From positions 1-35,385 of the forward strand of contig DAOORA010000047.1 in assembly GCA_035389045.1 (NCBI GenBank): a stretch of DNA of 35,385 nt, in the 5' to 3' direction. Source of the DNA: Bacteroidales bacterium. GTDB taxonomy: Bacteria > Bacteroidota > Bacteroidia > Bacteroidales > CAIWKO01. The notes beneath the pieces were generated by a model, which was not told where the DNA came from, ran no database searches, and saw only the letters and a list, made by a program, of their open reading frames with translations. Below are positions 170 through 6,982 of this stretch, piece by piece; position 1 is the stretch's first letter, and every line of letters begins with the position of its first letter. A program made the translations under genes and the position numbers.

Positions 170-1930
170 TCAGTAATGCAGAATCTTCTGTGTTTCCTGA
201 TGTTCGGCTTTGGATAAAAATTCGCGGTACACGGTGTTTAAAGCCACGTTTTCGTGTGCTTTTTTAACTGAGGCAACCTCATCGAGGGCATATAAAACCG
301 ATGATCTGGCTTTAATAAGTTCGTTTGAAACAGGTATTGGTTGCCCGCCGCCGCCAATACATCCTCCGTGACAGACCATTACTTCAACAAAATGACATTC
401 GTGTTCATTCTCTTTCAGATCATTGAAGAATTTAGCGGCATTACCACTGCCATTAACCACAGCAAAACGGATTTCTTTATCTTTTAAAAACTCCCAGCCG
501 GCTCTGACCTCGGTGAATTTTATGGTGGTTTCTTTGATACCGTTTTCACCACGTAACGAATTAATTTTCAGCCATTCCGGGCTTAACTCATTGCCAGTGA
601 CCAGTTCCGAAAGGGTTCTGATAACAGCTTCGGTGGTTCCGCCCGATACTTCTGTGAGTACAGAAGCACCGGAATGCATCGACATCAGGGTGTCATAAAC
701 ATCCGGCTCCAGTCTTTCAATATCAATACCGGATTGCCGTATCATACGCACTAATTCCCTTGTGGTAAGAGCATAATCAACCTCTGCAGCGCCCTGTGAG
801 GAACCATTAGCCGTTTCGTTTTTTGCAGCAGTACAGGGTGTTACAGAAACCGTTATTATATCTTTAGAATCCAGAGCTTTTTTGTCGGCATAATACGTCT
901 TGATCAGCGCACCATAAATAAGTCCGGGTGATTTGCAGGTAGAAAGCAGCGGTTCGTTTTCAGGAAATAAGGTTCTGACAAAACTGACCCATCCCTGCGA
1001 ACAGGAGGTTATAAATGGTAATACCTTTTTATTTTTTTCTTCATTATCCTGTTTCATTCTCAGCATGAATTCCGTGCAGAGTTCCATGATATAAATATCA
1101 TTGAAATAACCGGAATCGACTACCGTGTCAAAGCCTAGCAACTTCAAGGCAGCAACTATTTTGGCATCAGAATGTTTATTGTATTCAAAACCTAATTCCT
1201 GGCCTATGGCCACACGCACCGAAGGAGTGGCCGATATGACCACATGCTTTTGAGGTTCGGCAAGGGCATCCCAAACTTCTTCGTATAGCGGTTTTTCAGT
1301 AAGTGCAGCCGTAGGACAACGGCTGGTGCATTGTCCGCAGTCAATACAAAAGACATCTTTTAATGATTTACCAAAAAATGTAGATACTTTTTGTTTTTTT
1401 CCTTTACTGACAACTGAAAAAGTCCCTACCCCCTGCATGTCGGTGCATGTCCGCACACAGCGCTGGCAGCGAACACACTTGCTGTCATCCTTAACAATGG
1501 AGGATGATGAGGTATCAGGCAGTTTTTCTTCTTCTTTCACCAGGTCGTGATAAACATGATCACCGATACGGTATTCACTGGCCAGCCATTGTAACTCGCA
1601 ATTGCCATTGCGGTAACATTTGGTGCAGTCGGCATTATGCTCAGACAGAAGAAGTTCCACAATAGTTTTACGGGCTGTCCTCACTTTGGGACTGTTGGTT
1701 GAAACAACCATGCCTTCGGTAACAGCAGTAGAACAGGCCGTAACAAGTTCTTTTTGGCCCGACAGTTCCACCACACATACGCGACAATTGCCAGCCACCC
1801 TTAAGTCCGGATGATAACACAGTGTGGGAATATGCATATTGATCCTGTGTGCAGCATCCAGTATGGTGGAGCCGTCCTCAACGGAAACGGGTATATTATT
1901 TATTGTCAGGTTGATAAGTGATTTTTCCAT
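170..1930 (-). CDS. [FeFe]-hydrogenase group A large-subunit homolog (HydA/HndD-like) with degenerate H-cluster pocket
   Basis: N-terminal [2Fe-2S] motif (CYHP...CRVC...C), His-ligated cluster HNADCTKC...C, two CxxCxxCxxxC motifs; H-domain motifs TSCSQGW, TPCTAAKNE and EVMVCHGGCIGGGGQP; C-terminal small-subunit-like KAHEN...ILH. Confidence 0.9.
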   Translation of the reverse strand: MEKSLINLTINNIPVSVEDGSTILDAAHRINMHIPTLCYHPDLRVAGNCRVCVVELSGQKELVTACSTAVTEGMVVSTNSPKVRTARKTIVELLLSEHNADCTKCYRNGNCELQWLASEYRIGDHVYHDLVKEEEKLPDTSSSSIVKDDSKCVRCQRCVRTCTDMQGVGTFSVVSKGKKQKVSTFFGKSLKDVFCIDCGQCTSRCPTAALTEKPLYEEVWDALAEPQKHVVISATPSVRVAIGQELGFEYNKHSDAKIVAALKLLGFDTVVDSGYFNDIYIMELCTEFMLRMKQDNEEKNKKVLPFITSCSQGWVSFVRTLFPENEPLLSTCKSPGLIYGALIKTYYADKKALDSKDIITVSVTPCTAAKNETANGSSQGAAEVDYALTTRELVRMIRQSGIDIERLEPDVYDTLMSMHSGASVLTEVSGGTTEAVIRTLSELVTGNELSPEWLKINSLRGENGIKETTIKFTEVRAGWEFLKDKEIRFAVVNGSGNAAKFFNDLKENEHECHFVEVMVCHGGCIGGGGQPIPVSNELIKARSSVLYALDEVASVKKAHENVALNTVYREFLSKAEHQETQKILHY

Positions 1931-1941
1931 CAGATAAAAAA

Positions 1942-3108
1942 TTAATACAAAATTTCTTCCTTAAAATTTTCCAATATTGAAATGAACGGGTTGGCTACCG
2001 ATTGTCCGAGGCCGCATTTGGCAGAAGTTTTCATGTTCAATGCCAGCTTTTTCAGCACCTCAATATAGGTGACCGGTTTTTCGCCTTTTTTCACCGCTTC
2101 GATACCCAGCAGCAGTTGTTGAGTCCCCACCCTGCAGGGCGTACACAGCCCGCACGATTCTTCCGCAAAAAAACGCAGATATTCATGTAACAACTTATAC
2201 ATTGACCGGGTGTTGTTGAAGAATATCATAGAACCGCCTGTCGTGAGACCTTCAAATCCGATCACTGTTTCGGCAAAAAGTCTTTGCGGGATGCAATAGC
2301 CTGATGCACCGCCAACCTGTACCGACTTGATGTTTTTATCACCAAACTCATTAACCACATCTTCAATAGTAGTTCCAAGTTCCAGTTCGTGAATACCCGG
2401 ATTCCTGGTATCGCCGGATATGGAGAATAACTTGGATCCGGCGGAATATGCGGTGCCGAGTTTCAGAAATTCTTCAGCACCGATCCTGAAGATGACCTGG
2501 GCGGTGGCAAAAGTTTCCACATTGTTGACCACTGTCGGACAGCCATACAATCCCCGGCTGACCGGAAAAGGCGGTTTGTTGCATGGTTCGGCACGATAAC
2601 CTTCCATGGATTCAATCAGGGCGCTTTCTTCGCCGCTCACATACGACCCGCTGCCCATAAAAAGTTCTATGGTAAAATCAAAATTAAACTGCCGGACATG
2701 CTCATGAAAAATCCCGAGTTCTTTTAAAATATGCTCTTTCATATAGCCGTATTCGTGCCGGAGATATATGATGCCTTTTTTAGCCCCGATACAGTAACCA
2801 CAAACGGCCATACCCGACAAAACCTTGCGCGGGACACGCTCGAGGATTTCACGGTCCTTAAAAGTACCCGTTTCGCTTTCATTGGCATTGCAGATCACAT
2901 ACTTTGTGTCTGAGACTTCCCTGCGGGCAAATTTCCATTTCATACCGGTAGGAAAACCCACATTACCGCGGCCTTTAAGCCCTGAATCCATCAATTCCGA
3001 AATGATATCATCGGGTGTCCGCTCCAGGGTACGTTCGAGCGTTTTGTATTTCGACGATGTATAATCGCTGAAAATCAATTCAATGCGTTTCTGACTCTGT
3101 AATTCCAT
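1942..3108 (-). CDS. NuoF/HydB-like flavoprotein subunit, short form (no extra ferredoxin domains)
   Basis: GLKGRGNVGFPTG, NANESETGTFKDR, GEESALIESMEG, KPPFP, NNVET, SLBB-like region and ESCGLCTPC...CGLG N3-type cluster motif; 388 aa. Confidence 0.9.
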   Translation of the reverse strand: MELQSQKRIELIFSDYTSSKYKTLERTLERTPDDIISELMDSGLKGRGNVGFPTGMKWKFARREVSDTKYVICNANESETGTFKDREILERVPRKVLSGMAVCGYCIGAKKGIIYLRHEYGYMKEHILKELGIFHEHVRQFNFDFTIELFMGSGSYVSGEESALIESMEGYRAEPCNKPPFPVSRGLYGCPTVVNNVETFATAQVIFRIGAEEFLKLGTAYSAGSKLFSISGDTRNPGIHELELGTTIEDVVNEFGDKNIKSVQVGGASGYCIPQRLFAETVIGFEGLTTGGSMIFFNNTRSMYKLLHEYLRFFAEESCGLCTPCRVGTQQLLLGIEAVKKGEKPVTYIEVLKKLALNMKTSAKCGLGQSVANPFISILENFKEEILY

Positions 3109-3114
3109 AGCCTT

Positions 3115-3579
3115 TTATTTTTCCTTGTACTCCTTTATGATTTGAACTGCCTTCTGGGGTGTCAGTTCCGTAAAAACCTCATTGTTAATCATCATGGCCG
3201 GGGATTTGTGACACCAGCCGAGACAATTGGCCTGAAGCAACGTAAATTTCCTGTCGGTGGTGGTTTCGCCCACTTTGATCTTGAGCAACAGGCTTATAGT
3301 ACTCAACACCTCAGCCTGCGACTGCATCATACATGATATATTGCGGCAAAGGCGTATGATGTATTTTCCCCGGGGAACCGTGTCCAGGTAAGTATAAAAT
3401 GATGCGGTTCCGTAGACTTCCGAGGAAGGTATTTCTAATGATTCAGCCACTTCAAGCAGCGCATCCTCACTCAGGTAGTTTTCATGTTGAACGATCTCCT
3501 GAAGCAGCGGCAACAGATTATTGCGCGCTTTGCCATGCACTTTCACATATTCCTGTATTAACGATTTTACTTCCTGCAT
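3115..3579 (-). CDS. NuoE/HydC-like thioredoxin-fold [2Fe-2S] subunit
   Basis: LLPLLQEI, VYGTASFY, CRNISC...CLGWC..SPAMMIN motifs; first gene of the operon. Confidence 0.92.
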   Translation of the reverse strand: MQEVKSLIQEYVKVHGKARNNLLPLLQEIVQHENYLSEDALLEVAESLEIPSSEVYGTASFYTYLDTVPRGKYIIRLCRNISCMMQSQAEVLSTISLLLKIKVGETTTDRKFTLLQANCLGWCHKSPAMMINNEVFTELTPQKAVQIIKEYKEK

Positions 3580-3685: not shown

Positions 3686-4006
3686 TTATTTTCCAACTTT
3701 TTCGATGGTATAGCCAAGCGCTGATCCCAGAATACCAGTTATGATGATGACCGGTATCAGCGTCAGAGGCTCCTCAAAGGCGATGAGTACAGCACAAGGT
3801 ATTAATAATGCGTATCCCAGCAGCATGCCCTTCAACACCGGGTGAATTTTGATATAAGTAACTGCAATAAGCAACCCACAGACCACCCACATGGTGAATG
3901 CCGACAAATCAGCATCCCATGGAAGTTTCTGAATTATCATAGGGACAACATCGATAATGCCTGCAAGCACTCCGAAAATGAGTCCGGTTAAAATGCGTTT
4001 TTTCAT
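3686..4006 (-). CDS. Small hypothetical integral membrane protein (about 4 TM helices)
   Basis: 106-aa ATG-initiated ORF, nearly all hydrophobic, with AT-rich leader. Confidence 0.8.
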   Translation of the reverse strand: MKKRILTGLIFGVLAGIIDVVPMIIQKLPWDADLSAFTMWVVCGLLIAVTYIKIHPVLKGMLLGYALLIPCAVLIAFEEPLTLIPVIIITGILGSALGYTIEKVGK

Positions 4007-4400: not shown

Positions 4401-5744
4401 ATGAAGAAATTGATAGAACCGGATAATATCATGAAGTTTAAGAGCATGCGGGAGCCCTTAACGCTCGAAGCGGCTATAAAAGAATCAAACCGCTGCCTGC
4501 TGTGCTACGATGCTCCGTGCAGCGCAGGATGCCCGGCAGGAACTGATCCCGGGAAATTTATCAGACAAATAAAATTCCATAACTATAAAGGCGCCGCAAG
4601 AACCATACGCCGAAACAATATCCTGGGGAGCAGTTGCGCATTTATTTGCCCCGTGGAGAACCTTTGCGAAAAAGCCTGCAGTAGTAAGGCTATTGATAAT
4701 CCTGTAAATATCAGCGGGTTACAGCGTTTTGCCACGGAATACGGAAAAAACAACAGACTCGAACCCCTGGAAAAAAGCAGAAAAGACAATGGAAAAATAG
4801 CGGTGATCGGTTGCGGCCCTTCGGGTATGGGATGCGCTTCTGCACTGGCCAAAATGAACTATGATGTAGTAATTTTTGAAAAACAGCCGCAGGCTGGCGG
4901 TGTCCCAAAGTGGAATATTCCTGAATACAGGTTACCTGAAGACGCTATCCATTATGACGTTAAAAATTTGCTCGATCAGGGCGTAGAGATCAAATACGAA
5001 ACCGCCGTGGACACGACCGGCGCCGTTGAAGCCCTTCTTGATAAAGGCTTTGACGCCGTATACATCAGCACAGGGCTTGCTGAGGCATTCAAACTCGATC
5101 TGTTTAATGGCTTTTCCAATGCCATGGATTATAATACTTTCTTGCGTCAGGTTAAATTTGAAAGGCCTGATACCGGTCTCAAAGGAAAAAATGCAGCCAT
5201 CATCGGAGGCGGAAGCGTGGCCATTGACTCGGCCGTTTCAGCCAAAGCCTGCGGCGCAAACAAAGTCTATCTGATCTCGCTGGAACAACTGCATGAATTA
5301 CCGGCTGATGAGGAAGAAATAAAACTGGCTCATATCATGAATATCATTTTTAAAGCCGGTTGCTCAATCATCCGTGTTGATGCAGATAAAAACAGAATTA
5401 CAGGCCTTCAGGGCATCGAAACCGAGTGGATCGAACCCGGGAAATATACTCCTGACAATGCCCGGCAGATTCCGGGGACAGAATTCTCGATTCGGGTTGA
5501 TCTTGTTGTACAGGCTATCGGAACCAGGCCGGGTAACGAAGTGAAGGGCTTTGGACGGAATCTACAGACTTGTGGTAAAGGAGTCATTGTTGTAAATGAG
5601 AACATGGAGACAAATATACCCGGTGTTTTTGCAGGGGGCGATGTGATAAACGGCGGCAACACGGTAGTTCAGGCCGTCGGCGACGGAAAAAAAGCCGCCG
5701 GGCAAATAGATAATTATTTAAAAAACAGGAGGACTACTATATGA
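4401..5744 (+). CDS. preT: NAD-dependent dihydropyrimidine dehydrogenase subunit PreT (GltD-like)
   Basis: RCLLCYDAPC...CPAGTDPGKFIR, CAFICP...CE..C, FAD-binding VIGCGPSG, second Rossmann IIGGGSVAID, C-terminal GVFAGGD; overlaps preA by 4 nt (ATGA). Start could be Met11. Confidence 0.9.
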   Translation: MKKLIEPDNIMKFKSMREPLTLEAAIKESNRCLLCYDAPCSAGCPAGTDPGKFIRQIKFHNYKGAARTIRRNNILGSSCAFICPVENLCEKACSSKAIDNPVNISGLQRFATEYGKNNRLEPLEKSRKDNGKIAVIGCGPSGMGCASALAKMNYDVVIFEKQPQAGGVPKWNIPEYRLPEDAIHYDVKNLLDQGVEIKYETAVDTTGAVEALLDKGFDAVYISTGLAEAFKLDLFNGFSNAMDYNTFLRQVKFERPDTGLKGKNAAIIGGGSVAIDSAVSAKACGANKVYLISLEQLHELPADEEEIKLAHIMNIIFKAGCSIIRVDADKNRITGLQGIETEWIEPGKYTPDNARQIPGTEFSIRVDLVVQAIGTRPGNEVKGFGRNLQTCGKGVIVVNENMETNIPGVFAGGDVINGGNTVVQAVGDGKKAAGQIDNYLKNRRTTI

Positions 5745-6982
5745 TAAAACAGGCCGATCTCAGCATCAGTTTTTGCGGTGTTAAATTTGAAAATCCTTTC
5801 TGTCTTTCATCCTCACCGGTAGGCTATCATGCCGAAATGTGCGCCAGGGCCTATGAAGCCGGATGGGGCGGTATTGTATACAAAACACTGGGACTGGAAA
5901 AGAGTTTTAAAGTTGTTATGCCCTCACCGCGTTTAAATGCTTTTCATAGTGGTGATAAACGTTTTATCGGGCTGCAAAATGCGGAACAAATAACCGACAG
6001 GCCTATCACGGACAATATCAGGGATTTAGTCTGGCTTAAGAAAAACTATCCCGGTAAAGTACTAATCTCAAGCATCATGGGATACAACGACCAGGACTGG
6101 ACAGAACTTGCAAAAATGTCGGAGGATGCCGGAGCAGATTTACTGGAGCTGAATTTTTCGTGCCCGCAGATGGCGCATAAGCGAGCCGGACACCGTGTCG
6201 GACAGGATTTTCACGCTGTGGCCGCATTTACGGAAGTAGTGAAAAAGGCCAGCAAACTCCCTGTTATTGCCAAAATGACACCGAACATCACCGATATGGT
6301 ACCGGTTGCCCTGGCAGCCAAAGAAGGCGGCGCCGATGCCATTTCGGCGATCAACACCATACGTGCCATTACGGATATTGATATAGATACCTTCACCCCG
6401 CTGCCAAACATCAAAGGAAAGTCTTCCCCGACAGGTTTTTCAGGACCTTCGGTCAAACCTATAGCATTGCGGTTTGTTTCCGAGCTGTACAACGCAAAAA
6501 ACCTTAATCTGCCTATCAGCGGTATTGGCGGTATCGAAACATGGGTTGATGCCCTGCATTTTTTGTTGCTGGGCGCCTCCAACCTGCAGGTCACCACGGG
6601 AATCATGAAATACGGTTACCGCATCGTTGAAGATATGATCGAAGGATTGAGCGATTATATGCTTGACCGCAACATTCATTCACTGGAAGAAATCATAGGA
6701 AAAGCAGCACAAAAAATCGTTGACCCTTCGGAATTCAATACCAGGTACCAGGTAGTTTCAAAGGTTGATGAAAACAAATGTATCGGATGCGGGCAATGTT
6801 ATATTTCATGCCAGGACGGAGCCAACCAGGCCATGAATTTCGATACCGTAACACGAAAAGCTTCTGTCAATGAAGAACGATGCCTGGGCTGTATGCTTTG
6901 CAAACATGTCTGCCCCGTATGGGACTGCATATCGTACAAAGAGGTGGATACGATGACAACAAAACACGCTGCAATTTTTTAG
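5741..6982 (+). CDS. preA: NAD-dependent dihydropyrimidine dehydrogenase subunit PreA
   Basis: ENPFCLSSSP, catalytic LNFSCPQM, AKMTPNITD, ISGIGGI, C-terminal 2x[4Fe-4S] motifs CIGCGQCYISC and CLGCMLCKHVCP. Confidence 0.93.
   Translation: MIKQADLSISFCGVKFENPFCLSSSPVGYHAEMCARAYEAGWGGIVYKTLGLEKSFKVVMPSPRLNAFHSGDKRFIGLQNAEQITDRPITDNIRDLVWLKKNYPGKVLISSIMGYNDQDWTELAKMSEDAGADLLELNFSCPQMAHKRAGHRVGQDFHAVAAFTEVVKKASKLPVIAKMTPNITDMVPVALAAKEGGADAISAINTIRAITDIDIDTFTPLPNIKGKSSPTGFSGPSVKPIALRFVSELYNAKNLNLPISGIGGIETWVDALHFLLLGASNLQVTTGIMKYGYRIVEDMIEGLSDYMLDRNIHSLEEIIGKAAQKIVDPSEFNTRYQVVSKVDENKCIGCGQCYISCQDGANQAMNFDTVTRKASVNEERCLGCMLCKHVCPVWDCISYKEVDTMTTKHAAIF

Follow-up and report, generated by a model that had tools for sequence, protein, structure and literature searches.

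Short HydB homologs without extra iron-sulfur (Fe-S) clusters mark the non-bifurcating, ferredoxin-independent [FeFe]-hydrogenases that depend on NADH, such as Hyd1ABC of S. wolfei (PMC9304861, PMC7311640). HylA of FdhF2-HylABC, a HydA homolog, belongs to a complex of NuoE/NuoF type and is thought to serve in electron transfer only; its L1-L3 motifs are not conserved, it has been reported only from Firmicutes, it is encoded beside FdhF2, and its partner HylB is long (PMC6085437). The eukaryotic Nar1/NARF proteins have the H-domain fold and keep Fe-S cluster sites, with no hydrogenase activity. HydA of the A. mobile NiFe-HydABCSL complex is likewise a HydA homolog without an H-cluster, and acts as an Fe-S wire in a NuoEF-type complex. 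Herein, we describe a HydA-like protein encoded at positions 170..1930 (minus strand) of a stretch of 35,385 nt from a Bacteroidales bacterium (GenBank assembly GCA_035389045.1, contig DAOORA010000047.1, positions 1 to 35,385; this whole stretch is called the window). Its Fe-S wire is intact, the pocket that would hold the di-iron subcluster [2Fe]H has been remodelled across a whole clade, and the complex to which it belongs probably carries out no H2 chemistry.

The hydA-like gene encodes 586 amino acids (aa), is open throughout and, as an earlier note on this DNA had reported, contains no stops. It is the last gene of an operon on the minus strand in the order nuoE-like, short nuoF-like, hydA-like. 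The first gene (3115..3579, minus strand) encodes a thioredoxin-like [2Fe-2S] protein of 154 aa. After a spacer of 6 nt it is followed by the nuoF-like gene (1942..3108, minus strand), in whose product of 388 aa Pfam recognized the domain for flavin mononucleotide (FMN) and NADH and that of the N3 [4Fe-4S] cluster, and no further Fe-S domain; 11 nt then separate the nuoF stop from the hydA-like start. In the HydA-like protein, Pfam recognized Fer2_4, NADH-G_4Fe-4S_3, a 2x[4Fe-4S] ferredoxin domain, Fe_hyd_lg_C and Fe_hyd_SSU from the N-terminus to the C-terminus. This is the full M3 architecture: a [2Fe-2S] cluster, a His-ligated [4Fe-4S] cluster, 2x[4Fe-4S], an H-domain and a small-subunit-like tail. 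The H-domain match (PF02906, Fe_hyd_lg_C) had an E-value of 3.7e-69 over residues 228-528.

Among the NCBIfam models, the best match was NF040763 (NADH-dependent [FeFe] hydrogenase, group A6), with 655.1 bits against a cut-off of 765, and the group A model TIGR02512 gave 367.5 bits against a cut-off of 405.95. The best match among solved structures was A. woodii HydA1 (7q4v; 454 bits, residues 7-585). The canonical A6 operon of two complete Bacteroidales genomes has the same architecture, with a NuoE of 154, a NuoF of 389 and a HydA of 596 aa. The operon is also that of the described non-bifurcating NADH-dependent enzymes, S. wolfei Hyd1ABC and S. aciditrophicus HydAB (NuoE of 154 aa, NuoF of about 389 aa, M3-type HydA of about 590 aa). 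In all related loci that reach upstream (10/10), a full-length nuoE (1-154) and a full-length nuoF lie directly upstream of the hydA-like gene; L128 and L137 show an irregularity in the start or frame of nuoF. In the partner NuoF, all four cysteines of N3 are retained, as is GEE; of 176 columns conserved in A6, 13 have changed to a conserved state specific to the clade. In the window protein (1942-3108, minus strand), GRGG reads GRGN, NADEGEPG reads NANESETG, and GAYICGEE reads GSYVSGEE.

Residue equivalences were taken from a phmmer (HMMER) alignment to the C. pasteurianum CpI chain that carries native CpI numbering; CpI chains align end to end with the HydA-like protein at about 353 bits. 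The substitutions found were A230T, E279L, Q325G, Q326L, M353T, K358A, F417T, G418E, V423T and M424T. On the side of the proximal cyanide (CN) ligand, residues 234-237 (ATPS; 1220..1231, minus strand, as for all motifs below) match CpI 229-232, with T235/P236/S237 at A230/P231/S232; position 230 is Thr in 12/14 clade members and Ala in 100% of the A6 sequences. In residues 277-287 (NDIYIMELCTE; 1070..1102), L284 stands at E279 and C285 at A280, so that E279L and A/G280C, both invariant in the clade, fall side by side; E287 preserves E282, and R291 corresponds to R286. The L1 motif (TSCSQGW, residues 308-314; 989..1009) has C310 at C299, S311 at C300 and Q312 at P301. S330 matches S319, and within residues 333-337 (KSPGL; 920..934) G336 matches Q325; in the clade, constraint is relaxed at Q325/Q326. 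The L2 motif (TPCTAAKNE, residues 364-372; 815..841) aligns T364 with M353, C366 with C355, A369 with K358 and K370 with K359; it thus carries M353T and K358A and keeps C355, K359 and E361. Since the C355-x5-E361 spacing is unchanged and K359 is present, no register shift yields a Lys at 358. In residues 421-435 (GASVLTEVSGGTTEA; 626..670), T426 and E427 replace F417 and G418, both changes being invariant, and T432/T433 replace V423/M424. The L3 motif (residues 515-531; 338..388) keeps M518, C520 and C524 at M497, C499 and C503, together with GGGGQP.

The earlier note had aligned these motifs by eye. Its substitutions and their nucleotide positions (815-841 for residues 364-372 and about 1070-1100 for residues 277-287) were reproduced by the HMMER alignment to CpI, which restored neither Lys358 nor Glu279; the functions of both residues are lost. 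The group A proton pathway is incomplete, with a clade-invariant Leu at 279; C299, S319 and E282 are kept, and R286 is kept here and relaxed in the clade. The ligands, in contrast to the pocket, are intact. The 16 accessory ligands (C38, C49, C52, C66; H98, C102, C105, C111; C152, C155, C158, C162; C195, C198, C201, C205) are all present and invariant in 14/14 clade members, as are C355, C499 and C503, and the ligands of the [4Fe-4S]H cluster are kept as C355, C499, C503 and Ser311 at position 300. The note's statement that all accessory ligands and C299, C355, C499 and C503 are present was therefore accurate. Its use of TSCSQGW as a sign of pocket loss fared less well. Ser300 (TSCS) is found in every canonical A6 sequence of our alignment, and a TSCSPGW variant is mentioned in PMC3787301. 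In A. woodii HydABC, Ser301 replaces the Cys ligand of [4Fe-4S]H, with the infrared signature apparently unaffected and the complex active (PMC10021017). The Ser is no defect and is uninformative on function; the accompanying P301Q is real, and is peculiar to the window protein and P0004. Although it has the same Ser ligand, A. woodii HydA1 differs in retaining Lys358, Glu279, Met353, Phe417 and Gly418, in having a typical H-cluster and activity, and in its long bifurcating HydB partner. One subclade (P0007, L136) reads SSGSPGW in L1, with Gly at the C299 equivalent and the rest of the pocket signature kept. An AlphaFold2 model built from a 14-sequence clade alignment had a mean predicted local distance difference test (pLDDT) score of 60, with values below 50 over the pocket loop 418-430 and residues 123-212 and 520-586, and was too poor for pocket geometry.

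The remodelled pocket is shared by a sharply bounded group. Among the 120 best database matches, P0001-P0014 (54-100% identity) have it, and from P0015 onward (at most 53%) the sequences are canonical. All 105 canonical A6 relatives have E279, M353, K358, F417 and G418 (100% at each position); the pocket changes are therefore not due to chance. In the clade, CpI positions 279, 280, 417 and 418 are L, C, T and E, respectively, in 14/14 members, position 353 is T or S in 14/14, position 424 is T in 13/14 and position 423 is T in 12/14. Position 358 is A, S, N or V, and never K (0/14). The expectation of a clade sharing K358A and E279L was thus borne out for L279, which is invariant, and for the loss of Lys358 throughout, but not for K358A as a shared state. 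In a quick maximum-likelihood (ML) tree of 72 sequences, the clade (16 rows, including two distant representatives) was monophyletic, with a support of 100 in the Shimodaira-Hasegawa-like approximate likelihood ratio test (SH-aLRT). It was sister to, and not inside, the 16 sampled Bacteroidales A6 sequences (supports 99 and 98), and its stem branch measured 0.36. The A6 enzymes are thus both the best family match and the sister group, and share Ser300 of TSCSPGW; the clade protein departs from them in its score below the family cut-off, in the replacement of K358, E279, M353, F417 and G418 alike, and in its stem branch.

The distribution of the clade is narrow. In a survey of 301 genomes spread evenly over the order, the matches listed placed the clade gene only in the window genome and one congener (69% identity), and the other matches listed had at most 55% identity. 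A motif-directed scan of metagenomes added 13 loci, and a scan of a genome collection added one, L047. The patterns of the latter scan fell in the shared N-terminal domain and returned at least 80 loci, of which the three with the highest identity were inspected: L047 is a clade member interrupted by a run of N, and L058 and L071 are canonical, L071 being frameshifted. Near-identical DNA turned up in sequencing runs of activated sludge and of anaerobic digesters, belonging to three studies, and the hosts of the clade are Bacteroidales according to record titles. In databases, one member is named only as a 'domain-containing protein' and another as 'HndD' (JGI). The earlier concern that pipelines would miscall the protein as a hydrogenase finds an example in the JGI name and does not hold for the two NCBI models, both of which already place it below their cut-offs. 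A search of the ESM Atlas returned generic H-domain clusters only. No description of the clade was found in a literature search that left subscription papers and supplements outside its reach and that did turn up HylA, Nar1 and NiFe-HydABCSL HydA.

Between clade species, nonsynonymous divergence (dN) was 0.12-0.24, and synonymous divergence (dS) was in no case measurable, being either saturated or undefined. The comparison therefore yields no dN/dS ratio, only the bound that dN lies far below dS. The clade gene is thus under strong purifying selection, for which the earlier note had suggested looking, and close orthologs share the loss, so that the window does not hold a lone decaying copy. 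Divergence was uneven along the protein. The ratio of H-domain to N-terminal wire domain divergence was 1.9 in the clade versus 1.15 in canonical A6. Of 213 A6-conserved columns in the H-domain, 82 (38%) are changed in the clade, 31 being newly conserved and 51 relaxed; in the Fe-S wire domain only 12 of 137 are changed, 5 newly conserved and 7 relaxed. The changes are therefore concentrated in the H-domain, and the pattern is one of purifying selection combined with relaxed constraint on that domain. Metatranscriptomic contigs from one library matched parts of the three operon genes at 99% or more, among them a stretch that spans the boundary of nuoF and hydA (1860-2007). Such libraries may contain DNA, contigs of this kind do not demonstrate expression, and the parts left uncovered carry no information; we take the match as a weak hint only.

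The absence of hydEFG genes from the window, which the earlier note had remarked on, is true of the window but not of the genome. Contig C4 of the same genome (G000) carries, at L013:3908-15440, hydC, hydB (639 aa), hydA (574 aa), hydS (664 aa, PAS/kinase), two response-regulator genes, hydG, hydF and hydE. The host thus encodes both a canonical paralog and the maturation genes that the note had suggested looking for. Its canonical HydA is orthodox at the pocket motifs checked (TSCCPAW, MPCTAKKFE, IFGATGGVMEA), and its sensory HydS keeps the L2 lysine in a CIAKK motif. The canonical hydCBA can supply H2 metabolism from elsewhere in the genome. The congener G045 has the same hydrogenase and maturation set. 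In a third genome, G301, which may be incomplete, hydG is present and the only H-domain found is of the remodelled type.

We propose that the three-gene complex lacks [2Fe]H and H2 chemistry and works as an NADH-linked Fe-S electron-transfer enzyme, and we give this reading a probability of about 0.6. Its ancestor would be the NADH-dependent, non-bifurcating [FeFe]-hydrogenase found in Bacteroidales. The complex would have ceased to hold [2Fe]H, the di-iron subcluster, and would neither make nor use H2. NAD(H) would react with the FMN that the short NuoF-like subunit carries, and electrons would pass from the N3 cluster into the Fe-S chain of the HydA-like protein ([2Fe-2S], His-ligated [4Fe-4S], two ferredoxin-type [4Fe-4S]). 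The chain would end in a plain [4Fe-4S] cluster at the former H-cluster site, held by C355, C499, C503 and Ser300, from which electrons would be exchanged with a partner or substrate. The inventory of domains and ligands, the loss of the Lys358 and Glu279 functions, the new pocket conserved across the clade, the operon and the purifying selection are demonstrated by the sequences; that [2Fe]H is absent, which way and in which direction the electrons run, and that an acceptor outside the complex exists are inferred. Still under selection are the module for FMN and NAD(H), the whole Fe-S chain and the cysteines that hold the terminal cubane. Absence of [2Fe]H is the most economical account because Lys358, needed for assembly, the E279 relay and seven other pocket residues are lost. 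We take CpI K358 to be the counterpart of CrHydA1 K228. The latter residue is extremely well conserved, in its variants H-cluster assembly is prevented, and mutations that disturb it leave the protein defective in taking up the cofactor (PMC9516953).

A second lineage with a very similar pocket was recovered by the metagenome scan (L140-L145, representative P0186; for example L141:2145-3869, plus strand). Its HydA carries K358M, C299A, M353T, G418E and M424T, with the motifs ISACPAW, TPCxAMKFE and L[A/T]E[V/I]SGGITEA, and the gene order at L141 is nuoE, long hydB, hydA, hydS, regulators, Rex, hydG. Close relatives of lineage 2 were found in 0/400 other genomes of the phylum. With the full-length alignment, the approximately unbiased (AU) test rejected a tree joining lineage 2 with the clade (delta lnL 135, p = 0.0047; the grouping was chosen with the tree already in view). 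With the H-domain alone, a joint clade was not rejected (p = 0.85) and outscored the quick free search. The raw H-domain identity of the clade was 0.42 to A6 versus 0.32 to lineage 2, which favours an A6 origin. The shared pocket states may thus reflect convergence or an old shared H-domain; both are possible.

Several observations weigh against a complex that lacks [2Fe]H and draws on NADH. C299, S319, E282, M497 and R286 are kept in the HydA-like protein, and hydG occurs in 3/3 genomes that carry the clade gene (G000, G045, G301), so that maturation is compatible with gene content. No redox-partner or acceptor gene is conserved beside the operon in the clade loci compared. In the partner NuoF, the flavin-site motifs are altered (G49N, D76N, G78S, P80T, and also A155S and C158S). 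Judging from these residues, its flavin or nucleotide site may differ in properties, and NADH use by the complex is for this reason an assumption; since these motifs changed along with the HydA pocket, the whole complex has shifted and not the pocket alone. The HydA of lineage 2 is the sole HydA-type subunit in the recovered stretches of hydCBA-hydS loci, and hydG-like genes follow in 3/6 of them. It has 14/36 of the clade-specific conserved residues, at positions where its canonical relatives keep the ancestral ones. Group D enzymes supply a further precedent. Active members characteristically have Ser or Thr in place of M353 (PMC8163306), and they transfer protons via E252, a Glu of the pocket that occupies the V423 position (PMC10407848). 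The clade-invariant E418 lies in the same loop as the V423 position, five residues away, and by analogy could serve a group D-like role in proton transfer.

Much of this evidence would suit an atypical H2-activating enzyme, slow or sensor-like, in which [2Fe]H is anchored without Lys358 and protons move via Glu418 instead of Glu279; we regard it as unlikely, though still to be reckoned with. Such an enzyme would account for the hydG genes of the carrier genomes, for the retention of all cluster ligands with C299, S319, E282 and M497, and for the place of lineage 2 in its loci. The putative sensory group D enzyme TamHydS resembles the clade in having Ser/Thr for M353, no group A proton pathway and a conserved pocket Glu, and it does hold [2Fe]H and catalyse H2 turnover. 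The Glu of TamHydS, however, stands at the V423 position and not at 418, and its domain architecture is another. A mono-cyanide cofactor can likewise be active in CrHydA1, while variants of the H-cluster Lys fail at assembly (PMC9516953). Lys358, moreover, is universal in the canonical A6 relatives and is kept even by the HydS proteins of the window genome and other loci. Seven further pocket residues were replaced together with it, within an H-domain that has changed in 38% of its conserved columns, and the protein scores under both curated hydrogenase cut-offs. We therefore still prefer a complex without [2Fe]H. The intact wire and dismantled [2Fe]H pocket, on which the proposal of a repurposed non-H2 subunit in the earlier note was built, are well supported; the loss of H2 chemistry is put forward here as probable and no more firmly, because the lineage-2 loci and the combination of M353S/T and a pocket Glu in group D keep an atypical hydrogenase in consideration.

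Loss of the di-iron site could also have opened the way to other chemistry, with the remodelled cavity by the terminal [4Fe-4S] cluster serving as a new active or cofactor site for another small molecule or metal. The cavity would be lined by the invariant L279, C280, T417 and E418 and the near-invariant T423/T424. That 31 H-domain positions moved to conserved new states rather than drifting speaks for such a site, although position 358 and 50 others are merely relaxed. So does the recurrence of new states in lineage 2, which the full-length AU test places separately; the H-domain alone, however, allows a shared origin, and the recurrence may reflect common descent or long-branch attraction. 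The lack of a conserved partner gene and the co-remodelled flavin site of NuoF fit as well, and in three loci a NikR gene and Ni/Co-transporter-like genes lie 3' of the hydA-like gene, but this adjacency is limited to 3/13 loci, the AlphaFold2 model is too poor at the pocket loop, and no substrate, cofactor or chemistry can be named. We consider a new site improbable. A neutrally decaying hydrogenase gene, or early pseudogene, is very improbable indeed. It could explain the roughly 1.9-fold faster H-domain and the loss of the L1 Cys in one subclade (P0007, L136), but the reading frame is uninterrupted in the window as well as in the 8 further full-length clade loci of the comparison, 31 new states have been conserved although identity among members is as low as 54-81%, both operon partners are intact in 10/10 loci, and the RNA-library contigs give their weak hint. 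Decay is further contradicted by the monophyly of the 16 clade rows, the low dN beside saturated dS, and the invariance of the 16 accessory ligands and of C355, C499 and C503. Taking both lineages together, one may tentatively ask whether the pocket with T/S353, non-K358, L/I279, T/A417, E418 and T424 is a recurrent alternative architecture of the H-domain and not a ruin; we hold this to be possible but doubtful. If true, an alternative pocket, whether it supports new chemistry by the [4Fe-4S] cluster or an H-cluster without the supposedly essential lysine, would revise the definition of an [FeFe]-hydrogenase.

The described systems introduced above differ from the clade in ways that can be read from the loci. 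Compared with HylA, the clade keeps the L1-L3 cysteines and most of L3, and has lost the L2 Met and Lys, with L1 partly decayed in distant members; its NuoF is short, no molybdopterin or Fdh gene occurs in any of the 16 clade loci, and its hosts are Bacteroidales. Nar1/NARF are eukaryotic cytosolic Fe-S assembly factors with neither a NuoG-like N-terminal wire nor NuoEF partners. Only the N-terminal ~210 residues match the A. mobile HydA (7t2r_A), in whose complex catalysis resides in added NiFe subunits; none is encoded beside the operon. A sensory HydS of group C or D would be expected to have a PAS or C-terminal cluster domain, regulatory neighbours and Lys358, whereas Pfam found no PAS domain in the HydA-like protein and no regulator is conserved near the operon.

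Loss of the lysine extends beyond the two lineages. Among 103 nearest representatives of 50%-identity clusters (full-length HydA homologs, P0121-P0270), 31 are without Lys358; 30 of these keep C355/C499/C503, 20 have T or S at 353, and 26 are without E279. Lys358-less H-domain proteins are possibly a large, undescribed population. One representative, P0121, is a predicted protein of 4122 aa with seven separate matches to the H-domain of the HydA-like protein. In metagenomic surveys of H2 metabolism, a protein is scored as an [FeFe]-hydrogenase from its homology and its L1-L3 cysteines. Since the clade passes such a filter and 31 of the 103 nearest clusters lack the anchoring lysine, H2-producing capacity may be overcounted. 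The clade would be a bacterial case in which an organometallic enzyme sheds its cofactor pocket while the machinery for electron input stays under selection. It would parallel eukaryotic Nar1 and clostridial HylA from a different parent, a non-bifurcating NADH-dependent enzyme. The clade is also a natural experiment that bears on which residues of the second sphere are essential to the H-cluster, and it suggests that Bacteroidales of sludge have a redox module linked to NADH.

The neighbourhood of the operon is variable. Downstream of the hydA-like gene, clade loci carry genes for a PEMT-like methyltransferase, for proteins with type IX secretion system (T9SS) tails and for an M13 peptidase; these were ruled out as partners, none being a redox protein. 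A gene for a NikR-type nickel regulator and a conserved unnamed gene lie directly 3' of the hydA-like gene in L044 (7300-9850), L133 (854-2204) and L134 (1582-2932), that is, in 3 of the 13 clade loci extending past the hydA-like 3' end, and we treat this adjacency as a lead only. The genes beyond NikR in L044 are presumably CbiM/N/Q/O-like Ni/Co uptake genes, judging from their first residues. A search for Rex operators gave 3 matches versus 3.3 expected, with 0 near the operon. In the window, two genes lie at 4401-6982 on the plus strand, divergent from the operon and inserted between it and PFK/PriA: one is GltD/PreT-like (447 aa), and the other encodes a PreA dihydropyrimidine dehydrogenase (413 aa; NF006183, 560 bits). 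As the pair is limited to the window and the identical locus L127, a functional link to the operon was rejected. The remaining window genes are housekeeping genes. The window contig ends about 169 nt past the hydA-like stop, and L127, an independent metagenome contig from the same organism, likewise ends just beyond that stop, which suggests a repeat or hard-to-assemble region downstream of the gene. At the other end of the operon, just 5' of nuoE, a predicted membrane protein of 106 aa with no Pfam family is encoded at 3686-4006 (minus strand), and is conserved in the window, L127, L131 and L132.

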